Below, piece after piece: positions 10,230 to 63,429 of a stretch of 64,000 nucleotides of DNA. Below the pieces are notes generated by a model. The model had not been told where the DNA came from. It saw nothing but the letters and a program-made list of their open reading frames with translations, and did not search any database. Position numbers and translations under genes: made by a program. Origin of the DNA: Eledone cirrhosa (lineage: Eukaryota); assembly GCA_964016885.1 (NCBI GenBank), contig OZ024742.1, positions 129,704,001 to 129,768,000 of the forward strand. Reading direction: 5' to 3'. Within the stretch, counting starts at the first letter, position 1. Every line of letters starts with the position of its first letter.

Positions 10230-11090
10230 AGAACCCTCTGTGTTCAGAGAACGTGAGGCCGCCTGTGAGACGTGAGACCGGCTGGGACTTAGCCCAGTAG
10301 ACGTCCCTCCTCCTTCTCTCCCTGTTGACGTCAAGTCCCCCCAATGTACTTGGGATGCCATCCAGTGCAGCCTGGCCTCAGACAGGCTCACGCGCCAGCT
10401 TGACCAGCACCGCCTTGCTTGTTTTCGTGCGGCCTCCAAACCCCACAGTGGTGCCTGGCTCCATGCCCAGACAACCATAGCCTGCGAATCGGCGTTTCCC
10501 TGAGGCTCGGCCTCCGGATCTGGCAGCCACACCAATGTCGCTGCGGTTCCACCGTGGACTCTTTCGGCCTCCACCCGCTTTCCTGTCGCCACAGTGCCGG
10601 CCGCATTCCACGCCATGCTGCCCTCAACGAGGTCATTAAGCATGGCTTGGACGTGCAGGCTTCCCTTCTCAGCTCGAGCCGGTGGGGCTGGATCGAGGGG
10701 ATGGCAAAAGGCCCGATGGCATGACCATCTTCCCGTTCCGCGGTGGCAAACCCCTTGTCTGGGATGCCACTTGCGCCGATACTTTCTGCAGCCGCAACCT
10801 GGTGCAGTCTGCGACTGACCCAGGTTCTGCTGCACGTCGGGCTGAGGGGGCCAAACTCCTCAAATACCGGTCGCTCTCCAACAGGTTTGCAGTCGTACCC
10901 CTGGCAGTGGAGACTTCTGGTGTCCTTGACCCCAGGGCTACCTCCTTACTCACCACCATAGGCGCTGAGCTGGCTAGCCGCAGGTGTGAGCCCCGCAAGT
11001 TGGAGTGGCTTTTCCAGCGCGTCTCCCTTGCCGTCCTCCGGGGAAACGCCTTCTCCATTCTGTCCGCCGGGGCTGTGGGTGGGCCCCATC
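10230..11090 (+). mobile_element. 5'-truncated CRE-clade non-LTR retrotransposon (zinc knuckle plus restriction-like endonuclease)
   Basis: GC-rich island translating to [33 protein letters not shown], then (frameshift) [45 protein letters not shown]. These are CCHC and PD-(D/E)xK RLE motifs. Confidence 0.85.
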
Positions 11091-12427
11091 GCATACCAAT
11101 ACATTAGTTAAATACCATTCTTTCATCTGATGTAACACCAATATATATTTTTACTTAATGACTAAAGTGACTTGAGTTCATTAGACTAATATTCTATTTA
11201 GGAAATTATCTCACATAATATCGAATCTATGAGATTTTGAAAGTATTTATTTTGAGAATACCTTAACATCAGTTTGATTGACCAGTTACAGCCAGTTTCA
11301 ACAGAAAAAGGTAGAGAATTCTGGCCGGTTTGAAGATTAAAGTGTTAAGAGAACTCTTTAATCTGGCCTAGCATGTGATAACCTTTCTAATGCTGGTGCC
11401 ATGGTAAAATGTACCTCATACACCTTGTAGTGTTAGTGTCATGATAAAGTGTACCTCATATACCCTGTAAAGTGTTAGTGTCATGATAAAATAAACCCAA
11501 TCCACTATGTATGTCATGACAAAGCACACAGAGTAAGGTGGTTGGCATCCTGCTATAGAAACCATGCCAAATATAGAATGTAACTAAGAAGATGAGTTGC
11601 TCCAACCTACTAGGTCTCAAATTATGAGAATCCATCCAACTCATGCTAGTGTGGAAAACGGACATATGATATGATGAAGATGAAGATGATGATGATTAAA
11701 AAATCAGATGAGAAATTGTTTGATGGAAATTTCTTGTATGAAAAGTTGTGCCACACCAGTCAACAGTCAACCCCTTCATTCTCTAGTGAAAATTGTCTTT
11801 TAAAGTTTTATATATATGTATGTGTATATATATATATACATACAGCTCTGTAGGTTTATTCCTATAACTGGCTTTTTAAATGAAGATAATGATGGTGGTA
11901 GTGGTGTAGGTGGTGGTGGCAGATTAATGGTTTTAATGGAGCTTACAATGATGACAATGGTGATGCTGATGGAGTATAATGATTATGATGTTAGAAACAG
12001 TGGCAATCACAATGGATGATGACGACAATGATGATGATGAATGAATGAATGACTGGCATTTAAACCTGTTTCCAATAAAAGCTTTTTAAAAAAATGACAA
12101 AAACAAGTTCACTATTCTACAGAACATAACAAACAGTTGTTTTGGCTAAGAAATATAAATGGTAGTGCTAGGAAACTATAGACAATTGTTTTTGTTTGTT
12201 TGTTTTTTTTGCTTTGTTGTTGTTAATGTTAAAATATAAATCAATAGTCATATATAAAAGTAGTATACCTGCTTCAGACAGAATAAAGAACCAATTCTAG
12301 TTTTCTAAAGACTAAAAGGCACATATTAGTAGTTTAGCATCTTGGTATAGATACAATTTTAAAATGTTTTTCTTTAAACTTACAAAAACTAATGATGATA
12401 ATGATGATGATTTCTTACATTGAAATA

Positions 12428-32235: not shown

Positions 32236-32831
32236 TTTCTCTTGCGTTTCGATCTTTCCACTTTATCAAGGGCTTTCTCAACACATTCAGTTAGTTCCGT
32301 CCAGTCAGCATGTAGTCCACAAGCCCATCCAGTGGAAAAACGGCTAAACAACCAGTTCTTGTCAGAATGTGTTAAACAGTGACATCGCTTCCTTTTGGGG
32401 GCACACTCACAAGGTCTATCAACAACCAAATTCCTAACGAGGTGCCGACCGAAACTAGAACCACCAGTCTTTTGAATGTGCAGAAACACAATAACATCTT
32501 CCTTTTCCATATCCAACTGGAAATTTCTTCGAAGATCTGAGATGGAGAAGTTGTAAGTGTCCAACGGTAAGTGAATAATGTCACTACTCATATTAACATT
32601 ACTCACGGTGTTGTTGATAATGCGGTGAAGTAAGGCGACAGGAGGGGAATTATGTTGTAATATAAGAGTCTGGGCGCCGAAAAAACGACTCGGTGTGAAA
32701 TTGGACGGTCCTAAATAACCAAAAACGATAATGCCAAATAACACCATACATACTGTAAAGACGAATAATTTCCTGCACTTAATCGGTTGACTTGGAATAA
32801 AATTCATGTAGTTCAGATGCCGCAATGGCAT
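32236..32831 (-). CDS. HS6ST: Heparan-sulfate 6-O-sulfotransferase, first coding exon, copy 1
   Basis: ATG at 32831 (MPLRHLN); type II TM segment; DVIVFLHIQKTGGSSFGRHLVRN (5'-PSB); C-x-C...C-x-C; WLFSRFSTGWACGLHADWTELTECV. Ends AGA AA|GTAAGT, a phase-2 donor just before the expected FYYITxLR segment. Confidence 0.93.
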
Positions 32832-33770: not shown

Positions 33771-35094
33771 AAAATCGATAATTTTTCTGGGTTGTCTCCC
33801 TTGATTTTTTAAAAACCAGAATTAGATGTTTAGCTTACATATTGAAACTCCAACCCATCCTATTTATTTTATAACGTATAGCATTTCTTGTAATGTTCTT
33901 TTTTGTCATATATCTTTTAGAAAACCAATTTACGCAGGCATGCTACCACTTAAAATAAAATTTTGCTGGAGATAGATTAGCAAAATTTAATAAGTGGTGG
34001 CGGTGAATAAAAACGGGGGAATCTGAAAAATTAATTAGCGGGGACGTCGATTATTCGAGACCCAAGAGTACATACATGCATACACATGTACACATATACA
34101 TACACGCGCCCGTATGCACATACACACACATTAAAGCAGAGATTTGGTTCAGTACAAATAATTATTAAGTACATTTTTTTTCATTTTTTATACAAATATT
34201 TATAAATTTATCTGTATGCGTGTGTTATCATCATCATTTCATTTTACGTCCGCTTTTTCCCTGCTTGCAAGGGTATGTATATATTTCTATATAAGTGACC
34301 CAACAACGTAATAGTGGCAGTGTGTCAGCTGAGTTACCCACAGCGGTGGCAGGGCCAGATTTAATGGCACCAAAGGAAGCAATTGCCCCACCACTGACAG
34401 CCATAGCAATTTATTTGTACCCTCTGCTGGGCTTTTTATCCTTTTGTCAACAACTATATTTAAAAACAAAAAAGTATTTAATGGCCTTACTGTGGAAATT
34501 CATCAAATTTTCTCAACTTTAGAAACATCAGATTATCAGAGCAATATTCAAAACAAAAAGTACTTGATGGTCGCATCAAAATTTTTCTACATAAGTGACA
34601 TCAGATGTGGCATTGTGCATGTGTCTGTACATGCATTTGTGTACGTGTCTGTTTTCCCGAGTGTTAGCAGACAATTTGCCAAAGATAATGGACAAATTCG
34701 GATTTCTATATTTCTCTTTCTCTCTTTTCTACCACAGTCAATTATATGCTGGTATCACAAAAACAATGCACCGAGTAAACACTCTAAATAGGTTATGTTA
34801 AGAAGGGCATGCAGCCATAGAAACTATGCCAAATATGTAATGTATGAGCAAGACGAAGTCGCTCCGATATGTCTAGTCTTGGACTTTGACAATCTATTTA
34901 ATACAAGCCAGTGTGGAAAGTGGATGTAAAATGAGGCTGGTTAGATTTTTTTGAATTTAATACCTGTATCTCTAACTTTACAATTCCAATTACTTGCACC
35001 AAGCCAACTTTGATATGTAAAATTAGGAGTTTGCCATGTATTCTAATTTTTTTGTGTATCAACCCCCCAATGTCTAAATCCACCTTGAGTTTTA

Positions 35095-35745
35095 GTGGCA
35101 GTGTGTCATCTGAGTTACCCACAGTGGGGGGAAGGTCTGTATCTCAGCTGAGTTACCCACAGTGATGATGATGGTGGTGGCAGTGCGTCATCTGAGTTAC
35201 CCACAGTGGGGGGAAGGTCTGTATCTCAGCTGAGTTACCCACAGTGATGATGATGGTGGTGGCAGTGTGTCATCTGAGTTACCCACAGTGGGGGGAAGGT
35301 CTGTATCTCAGCTGAGTTACCCACAGTGATGATGATGGTGGTGGCAGTGCGTCATCTGAGTTACCCACAGTGGTGGTGGTGATGGCAGCGGTGCTGGTGG
35401 CAGTGTATCATCTGAGTTACCCACAGTGGTGGTGGTGGAAGTGTGTCATCTGACTTACCCACAGTGGGGTGGGGGGAGGTGGGGGCTGTATCTCAGCTGA
35501 GTTACCCACAGTGATGGTGGTGGTGGCAGTGCATCATCTGAGTTACCCACAGTGGGGGGGGGAGTCTGTATCTCAGCTGAGCTATCCAGTGGTGGTGGTG
35601 GTGGTAGTGGCAGTGTGTCATCTGAGTTACCCACAGTGAGGAGGAGGTCTGTATCTCAGCTGAGTTACCCACAGTGATGGTGGTGGTGGCAGTGCATCAT
35701 CTGAGTTACCCAAAGTGGAGGGAGGGGGCAGTGTGTCAGCTGTGA
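35095..35745. repeat. G-rich minisatellite with core CTGAGTTACCCACAGTG and an 82-bp dimeric higher-order unit
   Basis: About 15 cores; period 82 bp at 35099, 35181, 35263 and 35345; a single related unit at about 34315-34345. Confidence 0.92.
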
Positions 35746-36344
35746 GACCCATCGTGGGTGGGTGGGAGTGTCAATCTGTCTGTGGGATAAAATGAGCATA
35801 TGGAGGACTGCCTCCACCTACCAGTATACTCCCGACACCCTCCTACTTTTCTCCACCCTAAACCAGAATAAGCAGAGAAATGGTACAACATTCAGATTCA
35901 ATATGACAGTATATTCTCCTACCCACTTTCCTCCCCAGAGAATACTGGCAGTTCATGCTGTAAAGTGGTTGATGTTATGAAGGGAATCCAGCCATAGAAT
36001 CCCAAAAAATAAAAATTAAAACAGAGCATGCAAGCAGGATGTAATCACCTGACCTGTCTAACTTCTTGCATGTATGGAAAATAGGAAAATAAACTTTTAA
36101 CGGTGGGCACTTGGCTTAGTGATTAGAGAGTTGGATTCTCAATTGTGCGGTTGCGAGTTCAATTCTCGGACCGGGCAATGTGTTATGTCCTTGAACAAGA
36201 CATTATATTTCACATTGCTCTTTCTGCCAAGAGTTGCAACCAGCAGATAGTATCAGCAATGAAAACTTTGTTTCTTGTCCGATTGGACAAGTTCCACCCC
36301 ACACAGTAAGTGAATGAGGTCTGGGGTCTTGTTGATTGTTAAAA

Positions 36345-39052: not shown

Positions 39053-39657
39053 TTTCTCTTGCGTTTCGATCTTTCCACTTTATCAAGGGTTTTCTCAACA
39101 CATTCAGTTAGTTCCGTCCAGTCAGCATGTAGTCCACAAGCCCATCCAGTGGAAAAACGGCTAAACAACCAGTTCTTGTCAGAATGTGTTAAACAGTGAC
39201 ATCGCTTCCTTTTGGGGGCACACTCACAAGGTCTATCAACAACCAAATTCCTAACGAGGTGCCGACCAAAGGTAGAACCACCAGTCTTTTGAATGTGCAG
39301 AAACACAATAACATCTTCCTTTTCCATATCCAACTGGAAATTTCTTCGAAGATCTGAGATGGACAAGTTGTAAGTGTCCAACGGTAAGTGAATAATGTCA
39401 CTACTCATATTAACATTACTCACGGTGTTGTTGATAATGTGGTGAAGTAAGGCGACAGGAGGGGAATTATGTTGTAATATAAGAGTCTGGGCGCCGAAAA
39501 AACGACTCGGTATGAAATTGGACGGTCCTAAGGGACTGAAATAACCTAAAACGATAATGCCAGATAACACCATACATACTGTAAAGACGAATAATTTCCT
39601 GCACTTAATCGGTTGACTTGGAATAAAATTCATGTCGTTCAGATGCCGCAATGGCAT
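39053..39657 (-). CDS. HS6ST: Heparan-sulfate 6-O-sulfotransferase, first coding exon, copy 2
   Basis: ATG at 39657; same motifs as copy 1 but with KTGGSTF and a 3-aa FSP insertion; identical phase-2 GTAAGT donor. Confidence 0.92.
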
Positions 39658-40344
39658 TTTACTTATGCTTCCGAGTCCTTTGCCTTCTCTATTTGTCACA
39701 ATCTCTCTCCCTTTCACTTATACACACATACGTGATCTTTTCCTCTCAATCTCTCCTCTAGAAGTCCGAGGAAGAGATGAGAAAATATAATATACATACA
39801 CACAACGCACTCATACACCAAATGAAACTCGTTCTGAAGTCTTTCGAGGTATTCGTTTTCAAAAGAACCGTGAAAAATAATAAGATCGCAAGTACTTAAG
39901 GAACTTTTAAATAGGCGTAAGTTAGAAAAACAATAACCTGATATACTGAAAACATGAAGCACTGGGGAATATTAGAGACAACGATATTTCAACAGTGGTC
40001 CTCCAGCAGTTGCGATTTTATCTTCCAGTGTTAGTAATATGATGATGGTGGAGATGATACATAGAAGTGTTCTTCTGCCTCATCCTCTCCTTCTTTATTA
40101 TTCTCTTTTCATCTCAGTAAGCTGAAATCCACATTCTTTCCGTGTGTTCGTTTGCCGAGGCAAAATGTCCATATCTCGTCAGATTAAATCGGTTGTTTGT
40201 TCAGCGACCTTCTGCTGCGAGACACTTTAAGAATAAGAAGTACTCAGGCTGCGGAAGAAATATGAGTATTTCGTCATCAGTTTCTGGGTACATAAGTACG
40301 CTATACTTCACACACGAGAGAGAAACATTGACGCTTTCATTCAT

Positions 40345-40575
40345 TCGTATTGGCTGTGTGTATATACTCCCACTCGCCTCACGCTCTCTCATTCCCTCCT
40401 TTGTCTTTCTCTATTTACATCCACTTTCGTTCTTCTTGTTTCTCTCAACTCAGTTACTTCCTCTCATCATCATCATTCACAGAATTATTTTTTACGATTG
40501 ATTGGCTGGTTAATGCTGTTTTGCTTTTATCGTTAGTCACTACTCCGGGTCCCAAATAATAGGGAGTGGGTTGGA
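40345..40575 (-). promoter_or_regulatory. Putative promoter of HS6ST exon copy 2
   Basis: Near-identical duplicate of 33515-33770; AGCCAATCA on the - strand at 40499-40507. Confidence 0.38.
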
Positions 40576-41520
40576 AAATCGATAATTTTTTCTGTGTTGT
40601 CTCCCTTGATTTTTAAAAACCATAATTAGTCGTTTAGTTTACATATTGCGACCCCAACCTATTTATTTTATAACGTATAGCATTTCTTGTAATGTTCTTT
40701 TTTGTCATATATCTTTTAGAAAACCAATTTACGCAGAAATGCTACCACTTAAAATAAAATTTTGCTGGAGATAGATTAGCAAAATTTAATAAGTGGTGGG
40801 GGATCTGAAAAATTAATAAGCGGGGACGACGATTATTCGAGACCCAAGAGTACATACATGCATACACATGTACACATATACACACACACATTAAAGCAAA
40901 GATTTGGTTCAGTACAAATAATTATTTAACAAGCAATCAGTTTTCAAAGTTTTCTTCCCTAACTCATCTATGTAACCATTCTACAGTAACCATTCTGCCG
41001 CAAGCATTTCTGACCTATTATTTATCTCTGGTTTTATACGGTTGATACAAATGTTGTGCTGGTGAAGTCATGCCTACCATGCTTATGAAGTGACTTGATC
41101 TGACTCATCTCCGTTTCCTTCCACATGCACACTCACCATCCACTATCACCCTATAGTAGCTACCCTCACTATATCACCACACACCCCATATTTCCATGCC
41201 TCCCCCCACACTATCATCCTACACCCCTGTACTGGCTATTTTCAATATCACTATACCCTCAACATTACTCCATGATCACTTCCACCCATTTTATATCCTA
41301 CCCCTGACCCCAATATCAAGGATCATCCTCCCTCTCTCAACTAACACAGGGTCACCCCTTTCCCCCTAAAATCTGACATACCAGTCATAAGCCTTTAGTA
41401 GTAGTTATCATAAAAGTACTTCCTACACTGAAATTCAGCCCCCCCCCCCCCTCCACACATCACCCTGTCAAATCCCACTACCAAACCACATTTTTGTAAT
41501 ATAGCTTAATATTTTCATTA

Positions 41521-43218: not shown

Positions 43219-43629
43219 TGTAGCACTCTCTAGACAAAGGGAAGTAGCTAGAGTTACTTCCCGTAGAATTTCTAGAATATTCCTTGAACTTCCGTTCCGA
43301 GTATTATAAAAGAAAGAGCAAAGGGCAATCTCCCTCTTTTGGCAGCAGGCTCTTGAACTGACCAAACCAAGCACAGATGTGTTAAGTTTTTCTAATCCTA
43401 TCTTGTATTTCAGGATTACACCATATCATGTCACGAGGTACGTTTTGTTGCTAAATTGTAATACACGCACTACAATAAATACAAGTTGTTATTGATACTC
43501 GTTTTGATATATTCGTCATGCTTCAATTATTACTTCGAATGTAGAGAGATAATTCTAACCAAGAAAAATTAATGGTTGGCATGCAGTGCTATTTACTGGA
43601 GTAAATAATCCTATGACCAATTCACTAAA
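43219..43629 (+). repeat. 5' LTR
   Basis: TGTAG...CTAAA; 10 mismatches to the 3' LTR by manual count. Confidence 0.95.
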
Positions 43630-44063
43630 TTGGTGACCTGACATGATGTGAAAATATTTGATGCAACAGTGGGCATGAATGCAGGCATAAAATACAGAAA
43701 AAAAAAGAAGAGGCAACAACACAGAAAAAAATTGTTCTCAACTCTAGAAAGTTCGTTTTTTTAGTCAGTTCGTGTGGGGCAAACAAAATAAAAAAAAATT
43801 TTTCTTGTTGAAAGCAATACATGAATGACAAAATTGAAGAAGTAAGTCACCATGTTGGCAGCGTGATAATTCACTAAAAGAATTGTCCCTCGTGTCTATG
43901 GATCAAACAAGCTTTCGTTTTTTTTTAAGTCGCCATCTTACTTGCTCGGTGCTATATTTTATTTTACTTAAGTTATTCATGGTACTACCACGTCTGCGGT
44001 AGTTGAAAAAAAAAACAAAAAAAAAACGACAAAGAAATTCTCGCTCAGCGTCTATGGTGTTAA

Positions 44064-47000
44064 TCATGAGCAATTCTTCGTTACCGGCATTTTCTGGTGA
44101 TGCCAGATTGTGGTTTGCTCAACTGGACTCGTATTTTGCTGCCCACGGTGTTCAAGCAGCACAACAGAGATTACACGTGCTTATCAGTGGAATTCCTGCT
44201 TCGCTGGCAACCTCAGTTAAAGACATAATTACAGATCCTTCACAAGGCACATCTTACGAAACCCTAAAGGCAGAAGTGCTCAGACGGAACAGCCGTTAGT
44301 CTGAGAGTAGATTTCGTTCCTTGTTGGAAGAGGAAAATCTGGGTGACAGAACTCCGTCTCAATTTTTACGGCGTATCCGCGAACTGAGCGACTCAACAGC
44401 AGAGGACAATTCCTTCGTAAAACAGCTATTCTTCTCCCGTTTGCCAACAAATGTGCAGACCATATTGGCGAATATGGTCGACACCAGTTCTTTGGAACAG
44501 ATTGCGGCCTCGGCGGACCGCATTATGGAATTTTCCTGAGAGCCTACTTCGGCAGATTCGGTCGTCGCTTCTTCTGCTTTTAAAACCCAGCCTGCTTCAC
44601 CTCGTGAGGACTCAATGTTGAGAGCCATTGATACGTTAACTCGTCAAGTAGCTAAACTTCATGAAGTCGGTCTCCTTCTTTTCATCGTCACGCCATATTC
44701 CCCGCCAACAACTCGTCTTTGTGTTGGTATCACATGCGTTTTCGTGAAAAGGCGAAACATTGTATTCAGACCTGCTCTTTCGGGGCCTCGGAAAACTAAA
44801 ATTGGAGAGTCTTGGCACGGCAGACCTCTCCCTCAATAATTCACCTAATCGTACTTTCTTCATCAGAGACCGAGTCTCAAACAGGTCATTTATGGTGGAC
44901 ACAGGGTCTAGTTGCAGTATTTGGCCTTTATGGTTCAGCTCTACCAAGCCAAATTTTTCCGGCATTTCTTTATATGCAGTGAACCAGTCTCCGATCAAAA
45001 CCTATGGTCAAATATCTTTATCGTTGGACTTAGCTTTGCGTCGAGATTTTAAACGGATTTTCGTCATTGCGGACCTACCTCATCCTATTCTCGGTGCCGA
45101 TTTTTTACACCATTATTCACTTTTGGTAGATGTCAGGAAACAGAAACTTGTGGATGGTACCACATCTTTATCTACGCCTGCTCGTAGGTCTACTGCTGCT
45201 GTTGTCAGTCCCTCGTGTTTTGTAGTTGCCTCTGGAAACCAGTTTCATTCACTTCTTGCCTCGTTTCCCGAGTTAACGGACATCTCATTTAAACCTAATC
45301 AGGTAGTCCACTCGACTACAACTGGCCCGCCTGTTTTCTCTCGTCCACGAAGGTTGGCTCCAGATAGACTAAAGAAAGCCAGAGATGAGTTCGAGCACAT
45401 GCTTCAGCTCGGTCTTATTCGACCTTCCATCAGCCCATGGGTATCTCCGCTTCACTTGGCTCGAAAGCGGATTTTAGGCCGGTGGGAGATTATCAAAGAC
45501 TTAATGCCATCACTACACCTGATCGTTATCCTTCACTAAATTTACAGGATTTTTCATCCGTTCTGCATGGATGCAAGTTATTTTCTAACATAGATATGGT
45601 ACGGGCTTACCATCAAATACCCATGAATCCAGAAGACATACCAAAAACAGCTGTGACCACCCCCTTTGGTTCATTTGAATTTCTGTCCATGCCTTTTGGT
45701 TTGTGGAATGCCTCTAGCACGTTCCAGCGTTTTATCGATGAAGTCACGCGTGGATTGGATTTTGTGTGGATGACCTCCTGATAGCCAGTGACACAGCTGA
45801 GCACCATCATCAACATCTATCCCAGTTATTTCAACATCTTCAATCGTACCAAGTCAGAATCAACCCAGCTAAATGTGTGTTTGGTACAGCTTCACTGGAA
45901 TTCCTTGGACATCTTATAGATTCGGAAGGCATTCGACCTCTGCCATCTAAGGTGGAAGCAATTCAGCGTATCGCACCCCCCCCCCCTCTCACTGAGACAG
46001 TTACGTCATTTCTTCGGATTAATTAACTTTTATCATCGTTTTATTCCCAACTGTGCTGAAAAGTTATTCCCCTTGACACAGCTGTTAAAGGATGCGAAAA
46101 AGAAAGATACACCCATTGCATTTTCTGCCGATAATTTGCAATCATTTGAATCCGTCAAGTCCGAAATAGCCGAAGCTTCTTTCCTCGCCCATCCTGTTGC
46201 AAACGCGAGGCTTTCTTTAACTGTTGATGCGTCCGATCATGCTGTTGGAGCAGTTTTGCAACATACGATCAACCACTGGCATTTTTCTCATGCCAACTTA
46301 AACCAGTGAAACAGAGATACAGCACCTTTGACAGAGAACTTTTGGCGGTCTATCTTGCCGTGAAGCACTTCCACCATTTTTTGGAAGGGCGGGAGTTCAC
46401 AATATTCATGGACCATGAACCGCTAACATTCGCTCTCCAATCCAAGTCCGACAGGTACTCTTTGAGGGCATATAGGCATTTGGATCTCATCTCCCAGTAC
46501 ACCAGTGACATTGTCATATAGCCGGAGCTGCCAACATACCCGTGGTCGCACTGTCTCGACTTTCTGTGTGTTCTCTTGCGTCTCCTGCACATATCGATTT
46601 GGTTGCCATGGCAACTGACCAACCTACTTTGGATTCGTTGGACATTTCATATGACCAGTTCTCCTGAAAATTGGAATATTTACCTCTTCCATCTTCTGAA
46701 GGGTAAATTCTCTGCGATATTTCTACTGGCTCACCCAGACCACATGTTCCAGATTTCCATCAATGTACCCGTTTTGATGCACTTCATTCCTTGTCGCATC
46801 TCGACATAGCTGCCACGGTGAAGCTCATCATGGCCCGATTTTTCTGGCCTAATATGTGTCGTTTAATCACCAGTTGGGCACGTTCTTGTTTGAAGTGTCA
46901 GCACTCTAAGATTTATTGGCATGTTCACGCTCCTCTTGGTGAATTCAGCCCGCCGGACGCCCATTTCCGTCACATTCACATGGATATTGTTGGTCCTTGG

Positions 47001-47884
47001 CTCGTTAGTCGTGGGTTCACATATATATTGACCTGTATCGATTGTTTCTCTCGGTGGCCTGAAGCCATATCCCTAGTGGACATAACAGCCAAGTCCGTTA
47101 CCCGAGCTTTCATTTCCAGTTGGGTTGCTTGCTTTGGTGTTCCACGGATCGGGGACGCCAGTTCGAGGCTTCCTTATTTTGTGATATATCACGACTTTTG
47201 GGTGCTCATCACATTCATATGATGAGCTATCACCCAGCCTCCAACGGAATGGTGGAGAGGTTTCACAGACAGTTGAAAGCTGCACTCCGCGCTACTCCTG
47301 ATCCGCAATGTTGGACCAAATTTTTGCCAATCGTGCTTCTTGGTTGTCGTTCTGCTGTTAAGACAGATTTGGGTTTCTCCTCAGCTGAACTTCTTTATGG
47401 TACCACCTTGACTCTTCTCGGTCAAATGCTAGCACCGGTTGATTCATCACATCTTGATCCAACATCATATGTCGCCAGGATTCATTTTTACTTCTCGGAT
47501 CTTCCACCAATGAACTCTCGTGAACAGTCTATTTCTTCTGCTGTTCCATTGGATATCTCTACGTGGACACACATTTTTATACAGAATGATTCCGTCAAGG
47601 GACCACTTAAGTCACCCTATAATGGACCTTTTTGTGTGCTTTTGTACACACCAAAAAATTTCACAGTGGCTGTCAATGGTCGAAAAGAGACAATATCCAT
47701 TGACAGAGCAAAGAGGGCTTTCTCTGAAAGTCTCATTACGATGCCTGATACACCTTGTACATTCACTCCCACACCAACACCTTCACCTCCACCGCAAACA
47801 CCACATACCACACAACCTTATGTCACACAAGGTGGCAGAACAGTAAAATGGCCACGTAAATTGTCAAAAACTATATACATTTAA
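44064..47884 (+). pseudogene. Frameshifted gag-pol of the Gypsy element
   Basis: Consecutive ORF fragments give the order gag, PR, RT, RH, IN (Gypsy order). Confidence 0.93.
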
Positions 47885-48272
47885 CCCTTAGTGGCATTAA
47901 CAAACTCTTTTCAGTTTCAGATAGAATTAGTGTCAGAAAAGTCTGTATACTGGTGATGTATGAACTATTTGATTCTGAAGAAACTTTGAACTTACCATTG
48001 AGCATTAATTTTTCTCTGCTCCCTTATGTTAACTTTGAGTTATCAGTTTTGTTACATTTACATTTTTTCTGCATCATCCTTGTGCAGCAAAAAATTTTTT
48101 CTTTGTCAAATGCATTTACTTGTTTTGTGCTTTTTTGCTATTTGCTTCAGTTGCGAGCTAATGTTTTATTCATGCACTTTCTTGTACCTTTCCTTTGCTC
48201 CTCATTTCTTACGGGTTCTCGCTACGATGACCTTCGGTTGGTTATTCGACTTCTCGTCTGAGAGGGGAGTCT

Positions 48273-48683
48273 TGTAGCGCTTTCTAGACAAAGGGAAGTA
48301 GCTAGAGTTACTTCCCGTAGAATTTCTAGAATATTCCTTGAACTTCTGTTCCGGGTATTATAAAAGAAAGAGCAAAGGGCAATCTCCCTCTTTTGGCAGC
48401 AGGCTCTTGAACTGACCAAACCAAGCACAGATGTGTTAAGTTTTTCTAATCCTATCTTGTATTTCAGGATTACACCATATCATGTCACGAGGTACGTTTT
48501 GTTGCCAAATTGTAATACACGCACTACAATAAATACAAGTTGTTATTGATACTCGTTTTGATATATTCGTCATGCTTCAATTATTACTCCGAGTGTAGAG
48601 AGATAATTCTAACCAAGAAAAATTAGTGGTTGGCATGCAGTGGTATTTACTGGAGTAAATAACCCTATGACCAATTCACTAAA
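48273..48683 (+). repeat. 3' LTR
   Basis: Direct repeat of 43219-43629, preceded by the PPT and followed by TSD AATC. Confidence 0.95.
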
Positions 48684-50125
48684 AATCCTATACATAATAT
48701 TCTGAAGATATTTATGTATAATTACATATGTTCCCAGTCAATAAAGTTATTAGAACCATGGTAAAATGTACCACGTGCACTCTGTAAAGTGGCTGGTGTT
48801 AGGAAGAGTATTCTGCTGTTAAAACCCCACCAAAGGTTTGAGAGGACTCTTCTGTTACATCATGAATACAACAATCTCTCTAGTACTGGTGCCACAGAAA
48901 ATGCACCTGTAAAGTGGTTGGCATTAAAAAGGGCATCCAGCTGTAGAAAACTTGCCAAACAAAACGTTGAGAGGCCCCCTTCAGTTGTGTCAGGGGCATG
49001 AAAACCTTACTAGTACTGGTGCCATGATAACATGCACCCATTACACTTGGTAAAATTGATGGTGATAAGGAAGGCATCCAGTTATAGAAAACTTGCCAAA
49101 TTATGGTTGGAAGGACTCTTCAGTTGTGCCATAGATATGACAATGTGCTTAGTGTTTGTGATCATGATTAATGCACCCAGTACACTCTAAACACATACAA
49201 TGCACATCTTTAATTGTGTTAAGGGCACAACATTCTCTCTAGGGTGGGTGATACAATAAAACACACTGAATACACTGTGTAAGGCCATTGGTGATAGGAA
49301 GAGTATCCAGCAGTAGAAAACTTGCCAAACAAAGGGCAGAGAGGACTCTTCAGCTGTGTCAAAAATATGACAAACTCTCTAGTGCTGGTGCCAAATACAT
49401 GGTGTACTCTGTAAAGCACATGGAAAATATGTGAGTTGAGGCCCCTAGCCTATCAGTGAGATCATTGGCTTCGATTAAGTAGTGACTTAGTCTATGAAGA
49501 CCTAGCCAACCCTTGCTAGCAGAGAAAGTGGATGTTAAATGATGATGATAATATATAAAACATAGATCAGCTTATTACATTATCTCTCTACATCTATTTA
49601 CCTCATGTGTCTATCCACATGTCGTCCCAGTTAACTAAGCCGTGAAATCACATCAGATGAAGGAGGCTATTTTCTAAATAAAAAAGCCAAAAATCATTTA
49701 CAACTATTTCTTCAAATGAAGAATTACTTTGTTTAATAAAATATTTGTCTAAAAGGCCGAGTTTTTTTTACTAAATCTGCACAAATGAAATAAATATTAA
49801 AATACGAATGAATCAGGTATTTTTCTCAAAGTTAGCAGAGAATAGAGCTGAAAGCAGACTCCATCCTCACCCTAACCAGATAGTTACAATTACAAATAAA
49901 GAAGGCGAGACAGGGAAGAGAATTAGATATATGGTGTTGGAGGTGGACATAACGATGGAGAGAATAATAAATAAACAACTGATCATGAGTGAAATAGTTT
50001 GATTGGTGTAGGGCAATAGATTAATATATAGATAAATGAAAGTATGGATAGATCGATGGATAGATATAACAACTTATACAGGAATATATTGAAATGGTTT
50101 AGATTTAAAATTTATAATTACTTAC

Positions 50126-50727
50126 TTTCTTTTGCGTTTTGATCCTTCCTCTCTATCAAGGGCTTTCTCAACACATTCAGTTAGTTCCGTCCAGTCAGCA
50201 TGTAGACCACAGCCCCTTTTAATGGAATAACGACTGAACAACCAATGCTTGTTAGAATGTGTTAAACAGTGACATCGGAAACTTTTGGAGGTACACACGC
50301 AAGGTCTATCAACAACCAAATTCCTAACGAGGTGCCGACCGAAACTAGAACCACCAGTCTTTTGAATGTGCAGAAACACAATAACATCTTCCTTTTCCAT
50401 ATCCAACTGGAAATTTCTTCGAAGATCTGAGATGGACAAGTTGTAAGTGTCCAACGGTAAGTGAATAATGTCACTACTCATATTAACATTACTCACGGTG
50501 TTGTTGATAATGCGGTGAAGTAAGGCGACAGGAGATGAATGATATAATATATGACTCTGGGCACCCAAAAAACGACTCGGTATGAAATTGGACTGTCCTA
50601 AGGGACTGAAATAACCAAAAACGATAATGCCAGATAACACCATACATACTGTAAAGACGAATAATTTCCTGCACTTAATCGGTTGACTTGGAATAAAATT
50701 CATGTAGTTCAGATGCCGCAATGGCAT
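50126..50727 (-). CDS. HS6ST: Heparan-sulfate 6-O-sulfotransferase, first coding exon, copy 3 (divergent)
   Basis: ATG at 50727; open frame; HIQKTGG, all Cys and GLHADWTEL retained; CVCTSKSFR and SRYSIKRGC replace CECAPKRKR and SRFSTGWAC; same phase-2 donor. Confidence 0.9.
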
Positions 50728-51492
50728 TTTACTTATGCTTCCGAGTCCTTTGCTTTCTCTATTTGTCACAATCTCTCTCCCTTTCACTTATACACACATA
50801 CGTGATCTTTTCCTCTCAATCTCTCCTCTAGAAGTCCGAGGAAGAGATGAGAAAATATAATATACATACACACAACGCACTCATACACCAAATGAAACTC
50901 GTTCTGAAGTCTTTCGAGGTATTCGTTTTCAAAAGAACCGTGAAAAATAATAAGATCGCAAGTACTTAAGGAACTTTTAAATAGGCGTAAGTTAGAAAAA
51001 CAATAACCTGATATACTGAAAACATGAAGCACTGGGGAATATTAGAGACAACGATATTTCAACAGTGGTCCTCCAGCAGTTGCGATTTTATCTTCCAGTG
51101 TTACAGATGATAGAAATTGTTCTTCTGTGACATCTACTTTCTTATCACCTCCTTTTCTCACAATAGTTCCAGCTGTTTCTCTCTTCCTTCTACCCAGTTA
51201 GCAAATAATGCCTCTTCCTCTCTAATATTTCTTATAGACACAAACACACAAATAAACACACACACAAACAAACACAAACACCAACACAGACTAACACAAA
51301 CAACACACAAACATGTGCACACATCAAGACAAGGATTCAGATCAATTCAAACAGCTAAGTAACTTTGACCATTTGTTAAAGAAATATTTATAAGCCTATA
51401 CAAATATTTACATACGCCTATATTTGTGTGCTTGTGTGTGTGCGTGTGTGCGTATCATGAACATTATTATCATTATTATCATTAATTTGAAG

Positions 51493-57869: not shown

Positions 57870-58390
57870 TGGCTCATATTGCTATCACAGTGAATTCCCC
57901 AGCTGAATTGAAGAACAGGGTATTTCCAGACTTAAGTAGTAATTATAATTCACATAAATGGTTGTGTGAAAGGGCAATTCTTGCTCCCAAAAATGTGACA
58001 GTAGCAAGGATTGACCATGAATTAATGAATTAAATAATTAATGAATAAGATTCCAACAGTCATTAAGTACAAATCAGTTTATTCAGTCCTTGATGAAAAT
58101 CAAGCTGTCCATTACCCAACAGAGTTCCTTAATTCTCTTGAGCCACCTGGAACTCCTCCACATAAACTTTTTCTGAAGGTAGGAGTCCCAATAATGCTTC
58201 TAAGAGATTTAGATCCTCCTAAATTAAGCAATGGGACAAGGTTGATTGTGAAGAGATTATCACCTAATGTGATAGAAACTACCATCATCACTGGGTGTGC
58301 CTCTGGGGAAGATGTTTTCATTCCAAGAATTCCAATGAAACCAACAGACACGCTATTTGAGTTCAAACGAACACAATTCCCAGTGCAACT
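57870..58390 (+). mobile_element. Helitron Pif1-like helicase fragment
   Basis: WLCERAILAPKN..., [44 protein letters not shown]...VFIPRIP...FKRTQFPV are classic Helitron RepHel helicase motifs; interrupted by stops. Confidence 0.9.
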
Positions 58391-58689
58391 CCCCAGGTTA
58401 AAACACAGCCAATTTCTTCTTGGGTAAGGAAAGAGAGTGATAGAGAGGAAGTGAGAAATGAGACTCAGGCACACCCAATACACGCTGTAGAGTGGTAGTC
58501 ATAGAAATAATATCAAACATGGGATGCAATGAGCAAGATGAGGTTCCTCCAACATATCTGGCTGTGACAACCTGTCTAACCTATACTAGTATGAAAAGCA
58601 TATATAAAATGATGATGATGATGATGGCAGCTTTAATTTTTTTAAAATTTGATCTATACTTAAGGTGTATTAAATAAAGATGTTTTTCT

Positions 58690-62914: not shown

Positions 62915-63210
62915 TGGCCTCCCCACAGCCCCGGCAGACAGAATGGAGAAGGTGTTTCCCCGGAGGACGGCAAGGGAGACGGGCTGGAAAAGCCATTCCA
63001 GCTCACAAGGCTCACACCTACGGCTGGCCAGCTCAGCACCTATGGTGGTGAGTAGGGAGGTAGCCCCAGGGCCAAGGACACCAGAAGTCTCTACTGCCAA
63101 GGGTACAACCACAAACCTGTCGGAGAGCGACCGGTATGTGAAGAGTTTGGCCTCCTCAGCCCGACGTGCAGCAGAACCTGGGTTAGTTGCAGACTGCACC
63201 AGGTTACAGC
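62915..63210 (-). mobile_element. CRE-clade retrotransposon 3' fragment (same family as 10230-11090)
   Basis: QSATNPGSAARRAEEAKL..YRSLSDRFVVVPLAVETSG...LRGNTF. Confidence 0.85.
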
Positions 63211-63429
63211 TGGAATTGTGGGGTCAGCAGTAGGGAGGCTGTAATGTTTTTGATACAACTGAAGAAGCCTACCAAGGTTACCATACAATATGGAGAAAGA
63301 CAGAAATAGTGAATGTCCCCTGAGAACACTCAGATGATAAGACTTTTATTTTTAACAATAGAGTTCTTTTATCAATATCTGGTCATCTGGTTCTTCCAGC
63401 GTCACAGTAACAGGTCATTATACCCTACT

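Follow-up and report, generated by a model that had tools for sequence, protein, structure and literature searches.

Three tandem first exons of a heparan sulfate 6-O-sulfotransferase in Eledone cirrhosa, one with a divergent patch between homogenised tracts

Enzyme loci with tandem, similar coding first exons before shared constant exons are exemplified by vertebrate GCNT2 (IGnT) and UGT1 (PMC1885805). In the excerpted text of that paper, these first exons encode the anchor plus a portion of the catalytic domain, GCNT2 has three of them in many mammals, and both organisations are called vertebrate-specific, with little gene conversion. A different set of systems, the red/green opsins, Drosophila CG18281/CG17637 and copepod GOT1p1/p2, combines more than 15% divergence in fewer than 200 coding bases with converted flanks (excerpts of PMC3924837, PMC2588116 and PMC3728101). 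According to the same excerpts, a peak of this kind, bordered by converted sequence, is a mark of selection opposing conversion (PMC3924837, PMC2588116), and clustered divergence can by itself suppress conversion (PMC3728101). Here, we report a locus of heparan sulfate 6-O-sulfotransferase (HS6ST) that resembles both. It lies within a 64,000-nucleotide stretch of the Eledone cirrhosa assembly GCA_964016885.1 (contig OZ024742.1, positions 129,704,001 to 129,768,000; hereafter, the window). Among the literature matches listed, which covered openly accessible text, neither titles nor opening lines of abstracts mention an octopus HS6ST duplication or the present locus.

The copies of exon 1 and the sequence upstream of them are as follows.

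32236..32831, minus strand: HS6ST coding exon 1, copy 1; STGW loop canonical; stem shortened in frame by 9 bases; closest of the three to exon 2
39053..39657, minus strand: HS6ST coding exon 1, copy 2; a mosaic of copy-1-like upstream sequence and patch with a copy-3-like intron
50126..50727, minus strand: HS6ST coding exon 1, copy 3; 200 codons with anchor, stem, KTGG, Cys loop and His loop
33208..34166, paired with 40034-40926, minus strand: upstream sequence that copies 1 and 2 share (17 substitutions in 892) and copy 3 lacks
51105..51180, minus strand: old, weak homology of copy 3 to the copy 1/2 upstream sequence, fading after about 75 bases

All three copies run in an open frame from an ATG to a phase-2 GT donor; donor and phase are intact in copy 3, which is free of stops and frameshifts, as a first-pass annotation of this DNA had said. 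A genome search placed one exon 2 on this chromosome (G000:C3:129692569-129693141), some 11 kb beyond the left end of the window and 43, 50 and 61 kb from the three candidate first exons. No exon 2 was found between the exon-1 copies, and neither an extra exon 2 nor further exon-1 relics were found in the window, 10 kb to its left or 20 kb to its right. Exon 2 encodes the C-terminal half of the domain, and its junction with exon 1 was observed for an exon of copy 1/2 type: in a spliced contig of run X4 (data type not on record), exon 1 ends at the donor, the first letters of exon 2 follow, and the patch has the copy 1/2 form. The three X4 contigs examined were of copy 1/2 type and none was of copy-3 type; rare forms drop out of contigs, so this count is silent on copy 3. 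The spliced contig combines copy-2 letters (a Thr codon) with copy-1 letters and may represent an allele, a recombinant or a merger of two transcripts. The three exon-1 copies, the single exon 2 and the join between a copy 1/2-type exon and exon 2 are direct observations.

Tandem similar coding first exons thus lie upstream of a shared constant exon. By analogy, the layout is GCNT2/UGT1-like, and the locus is a candidate, not an established, variable-first-exon cluster. It differs from GCNT2 and UGT1 in encoding an invertebrate sulfotransferase, in being lineage specific and in its heavy conversion; the promoter and splicing of copy 3 are putative. Copies 1 and 2 have a common upstream region, into which a low-depth X4 contig extends 172 letters past the block shared by all copies (the 30 letters shown are of copy 1/2 type). 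Copy 3 lacks its homologue, with none detected past 51180 and up to 56000, and a scan for promoter motifs and CpG was uninformative. The 9 bases absent from copy 1 (near 32714, three codons after the membrane anchor) are present in copies 2 and 3 and in octopod outgroups; nearby, copies 2 and 3 have Ser where those outgroups have Cys. Between copies 1 and 2, at 35093-35780, units of about 82-85 bases are repeated in tandem.

The copy 3 exon corresponds to the N-terminal half of HS6ST and matches zebrafish 6-OST-3 (PDB 5T03) at E 2e-31, its closest proteins being from Octopus and Argonauta. The fold was checked on the O. vulgaris orthologue only, whose modelled structure fits 5T05/5T03 with an rmsd of 1.5-1.9; together, sequence match and fold bear out the HS6ST identity proposed in the first pass. 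Like other HS6STs (zebrafish 6-OST-3, PDB 5T03/5T05/5T0A; octopod P0002, P0122 and P0003), the locus has the two-exon split of the octopod models, KTGG, the cysteines and HADW. Unlike them, it sets three first exons on one second exon, and in copy 3 SIKRG replaces STGWx and a conserved Lys is Phe. Homologues were gathered by similarity to these exons, and 349 of 350 proteins were aligned. Copy 3 retains both the 5'-phosphosulfate loop KTGG and the conserved His of CGLHADW, found in 349/349 homologues. We take this His to be the catalytic base. The conserved loop SR[FY]STGW is present in copies 1 and 2; copy 3 reads SRYSIKR.

A separate two-exon HS6ST-like gene lies on C21 (G000:C21:16080467-16083656; L004, L009, L014), 44-48% identical and carrying KTAG and SRLTSNWICGVH; a word-based, weak search returned no relatives of it at E 1e-12. 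Four further proteins (P0124-P0127) consist of exon 1 only on contigs of about 1.6 kb, two of them with WMCGVHADW, and possibly represent alleles or duplicates in another octopod.

Around copy 3, diverged and homogenised segments alternate.

43219..48683, plus strand (antisense to the gene): LTR retrotransposon in the copy 3 intron; broken coding frames; LTRs differing at 10/411 (2.4%); 5-base target duplication
48684..49885, minus strand: distal intron, 1.4-2.4% from copy 2; within it, 49552-49885 is 25% (70/278) from copy 1
49886..50125, minus strand: proximal intron, equal to copy 2, with 2 differences from copy 1 (2/245)
50131..50153, minus strand: divergence sub-island B, 5 differences (DREEGS)
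50154..50205, minus strand: identical tract carrying LHADWTELTECVEKALD, 52 bases equal to copy 1, probably converted
50206..50299, minus strand: divergence sub-island A, 21 differences, with CVCTSKSFRC and SRYSIKRGC; K-to-F, T-to-I, G-to-K and W-to-R at conserved sites
50302..50529, minus strand: homogenised mid-exon with KTGG, 1/228 from copy 1 and 4/228 from copy 2; derived Ser codon common to copy 1
50530..50599, minus strand: second divergence island, in the stem; 10/70 bases and a 3-base in-frame deletion
50728..51103, minus strand: upstream block, homogenised; any two of the three copies differ at 1-2 of 376 positions (copy 1 versus copy 3, 2/376)

Recounting reproduced the patch as first annotated: copy 3 at 50131-50300 differs from copy 1 at 32241-32410 in 26 of 170 bases, amounting to 15 amino-acid replacements and 6 codons altered silently, and the listed replacements (CECAPKRKR to CVCTSKSFR, DKN to NKH, SRFSTGWAC to SRYSIKRGC, DKVERS to DREEGS) are all correct. 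Its flanks are nearly unchanged, as noted then, with 1 and 2 differences in the 200 bases on each side (3/400, against 26/171 for the patch block; Fisher P 9e-12), so that a local peak above 15% stands between converted flanks. The 52-base identical run that separates sub-islands A and B has a probability of 0.0015 under even scatter. The stem island is new to this analysis. Essential residues had been described as kept, which applies to the cysteines, KTGG and GLHADWTEL; three near-invariant residues are replaced, namely a Gly present in 349/349 homologues, a Trp in 347/349 and a Lys in 326/349 (Arg in 11). The Gly is kept even in divergent relatives, Lys stands in its place in 0/349 homologues, and no copy-3-like protein was found among the 120 or the 150 matches listed. 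The patch was also placed around the catalytic His loop. It adjoins the His, and sub-island A stops two codons before it, leaving the His flanked, not covered. The four adjacent changes at 50278-50281 could be one small inversion, which could account for R-to-S together with K-to-F provided that the ancestral Lys codon was AAA.

The suggestion that the Cys loop belongs with the substrate site held up: zebrafish K132, a mutated site in a review, aligns to an Arg kept in copy 3, and the K-to-F change adjoins that Arg. As excerpted, two reviews (PMC8190904 among the sources) name R112, R116 and K132 as substrate-site or mutated residues, and the literature matches on residue roles add R206 and R329; changes at the substrate site shifted the selectivity of 6-OST-3 (PMC8190904, in part). 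The positions of R112, R116 and K132 fit one alignment offset, and all three are basic in copy 3. Modelling of the O. vulgaris protein predicts one loop that carries both the STGW segment and the conserved His.

The relationship among the copies changes along the locus. Copy 2 differs from copy 1 at 17/892 positions upstream and 1/171 in the patch; its intron differs from that of copy 3 at 8/334, 11/799 and, further out, 27/422 positions (1.4-6.4%). A copy 1-like upstream region and patch joined to a copy 3-like intron is the shape expected of unequal crossover. The LTR retrotransposon is absent from the matching site of copy 2, which sets a minimum age for the split of copies 2 and 3. Within 600 bases of exon, all three pairings (tree topologies) of the copies occur; copies 1 and 3 differ at 1/119 positions in the anchor and have in common a derived Ser, absent from copy 2 and from the octopod outgroups. 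This switching of topologies and the derived Ser point to gene conversion. The islands and the switching topologies are observed directly. A His in the Cys loop of copies 1 and 3, not seen in other octopod proteins, suggests duplication within this lineage.

Taken in sequence, exon 1 would have been duplicated within this lineage long ago (about 25% intron divergence), copy 2 would have formed as a hybrid, probably through unequal crossing-over, taking its upstream part and exon from copy 1 and its intron from copy 3, and conversion would then have overwritten the upstream block and the proximal intron and, within the exon, the anchor, the KTGG segment and the HADWTEL helix. We regard these three steps as likely, and hold with equally good confidence the overall history of an old duplicate, a hybrid copy 2, conversion and islands that were left unconverted. 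In two further proposed steps, conversion tracts covering the Cys and STGW loops and some of the stem would have failed to reach fixation in copy 3, and copy 3 would be read from its own promoter, with splicing to exon 2 across 61 kb. We put these two steps forward tentatively, in the sense of selection acting on a functional copy 3 isoform.

The patch could be a misassembly, a tandemly placed allele or sequence transferred from another locus. Contigs of runs X1-X3 match 50176-50329 without a difference, a second contig alongside carries the 21 differences of copy 1/2 type, and exact contigs also exist for 50505-50632 and for the copy-3 upstream junction. These runs are one sample, possibly the source of the assembly itself, and hence are not independent; for the five differences at 50131-50153, the copy-3 form is in none of the contigs listed, and contigs drop variants, which leaves these five unconfirmed by reads. 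Each copy has its own flanks, however, and the loop of the C21 paralogue differs. No donor locus elsewhere emerged from the genome search, which places patch DNA at the three copies alone. We consider an artefact extremely improbable. Copy 3 could instead be a duplicate only a few percent old, its patch the product of a burst of positive selection, which is how the term "hyper-divergent" in the first pass would be understood. The copy 2/3 intron, only 1.4-6.4% diverged, and the concentration of changes on copy 3 agree with this. Against it, the patch has a dS of 0.20-0.26, close to the 0.25 of the distal intron (70/278), and 8 synonymous changes compared with the 0.5-2.9 expected for a duplicate of 1.4-6.4% (P 8e-8 to 0.011). 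Silent-site divergence in the patch is on a par with that of the old intron, so what marks the patch is age and not a fast rate of change. The copy 3 residues N, Y and G, three of the 15 differences, are probably ancestral and changed in copies 1 and 2; the upstream homology is old, and the topologies switch. The recent burst is thus very improbable, and the reading of the patch that suits the sequence best is an old divergence missed by gene conversion.

Whether selection or decay kept the patch was assessed against neutral expectations. The absence of stops in the patch has a probability of 0.37-0.43 given the number of changes, and four multi-base codon changes have one of 0.20-0.48 at this density; the first-pass arguments from these features do not separate neofunctionalisation from decay, since both are expected by chance. 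The profile score of the patch changes is not distinct from neutral or random change (P 0.10-0.20), so the neutral model is not rejected, and the copy 3 patch scores below all 204 full-patch homologues. Patch dN/dS is 0.57-0.80 (Fisher P 0.3-0.6); on the copy 3 lineage, it is about 1.0-1.4 with silent changes split evenly and 0.5-0.7 with all of them on copy 3. The 15 amino-acid differences are spread unevenly, copy 3 accounting for 10-12 and copy 1 for 3 (P 0.09 to 0.035). Retention of all cysteines has a neutral probability of 0.04-0.13 (chosen post hoc), and an open frame over both islands with an in-frame deletion has one of 0.02-0.18 (a rough product). Kept cysteines, CGLHADWTEL and open frame give a joint P of 0.0003-0.003, which overstates the case because HADWTEL sits in the 52-base identical run and is explicable by conversion. 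Both islands are coding, and the noncoding blocks beside the exon (upstream block and proximal intron) are homogenised, at 0-0.8% divergence.

Our tentative preference is for copy 3 as a selected variant isoform with a remodelled substrate loop, a putative enzyme with altered or weakened recognition of heparan sulfate. An island between converted flanks, the asymmetry toward copy 3, the kept cysteines, the open frame and the basic residues matching R112, R116 and K132 point this way; the loss of Gly, Trp and Lys, the lowest profile score, the neutral-like changes and the lack of a copy 1/2 upstream homologue point the other. Of the earlier proposal of a neofunctionalised enzyme, the HS6ST identity, the open frame and the Cys-loop link stand, while the arguments offered for it fit decay equally. 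It is also a serious possibility that copy 3 survives as a relic whose promoter is missing or whose expression is very low, with selection relaxed and most of its sequence repainted by conversion from copies 1 and 2. Its islands would then be DNA that was not hit or was too diverged to convert, with purifying selection on copies 1 and 2 blocking the reverse transfer. A copy-3-lineage dN/dS near 1, neutral-like profile damage, the loss of the invariant Gly and Trp, and upstream homology that stops after about 75 bases are consistent with a relic, as is the location of the catalytic motifs within converted tracts, where their retention needs no selection. The freedom of both islands from stops and frameshifts with an in-frame deletion, the sparing of the cysteines and the converted tracts directly flanking sub-island A on both sides argue against one. 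Copy 3 might also be expressed and selected yet lack catalytic activity, serving in the Golgi as a decoy or partner that dampens 6-O-sulfation by binding PAPS or other enzymes. The intact anchor, KTGG and shared exon 2, with a loop altered at invariant sites before the His, would suit this role, but the His and its helix are kept, and we consider it quite improbable. In the opsin, Drosophila and copepod cases, as excerpted, orthologues in a second species or population separate selection from relaxation; the present comparison of copies covers a single genome.

Extending the selected-isoform reading, this octopod could have independently evolved a GCNT2/UGT1-like HS6ST cluster in which copy 3, held by selection, works without the Gly-Trp loop on a new glycan sequence or acceptor; we judge this unlikely. 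An active copy 3 would be a natural HS6ST with a rebuilt loop seen in 0/349 homologues, informative for acceptor choice and chemoenzymatic glycan synthesis, and an invertebrate parallel of variable-first-exon enzyme clusters. As a relic, it would be a clear example of gene conversion making a decaying exon look neofunctionalised.

Elsewhere in the window, a repeat with an open frame occurs in two copies about 90% alike (10640-11107 and 62916-63212; no Pfam match), and 58038-58427 holds a fragment of a Pif1 helicase 2B domain that is probably transposon derived.
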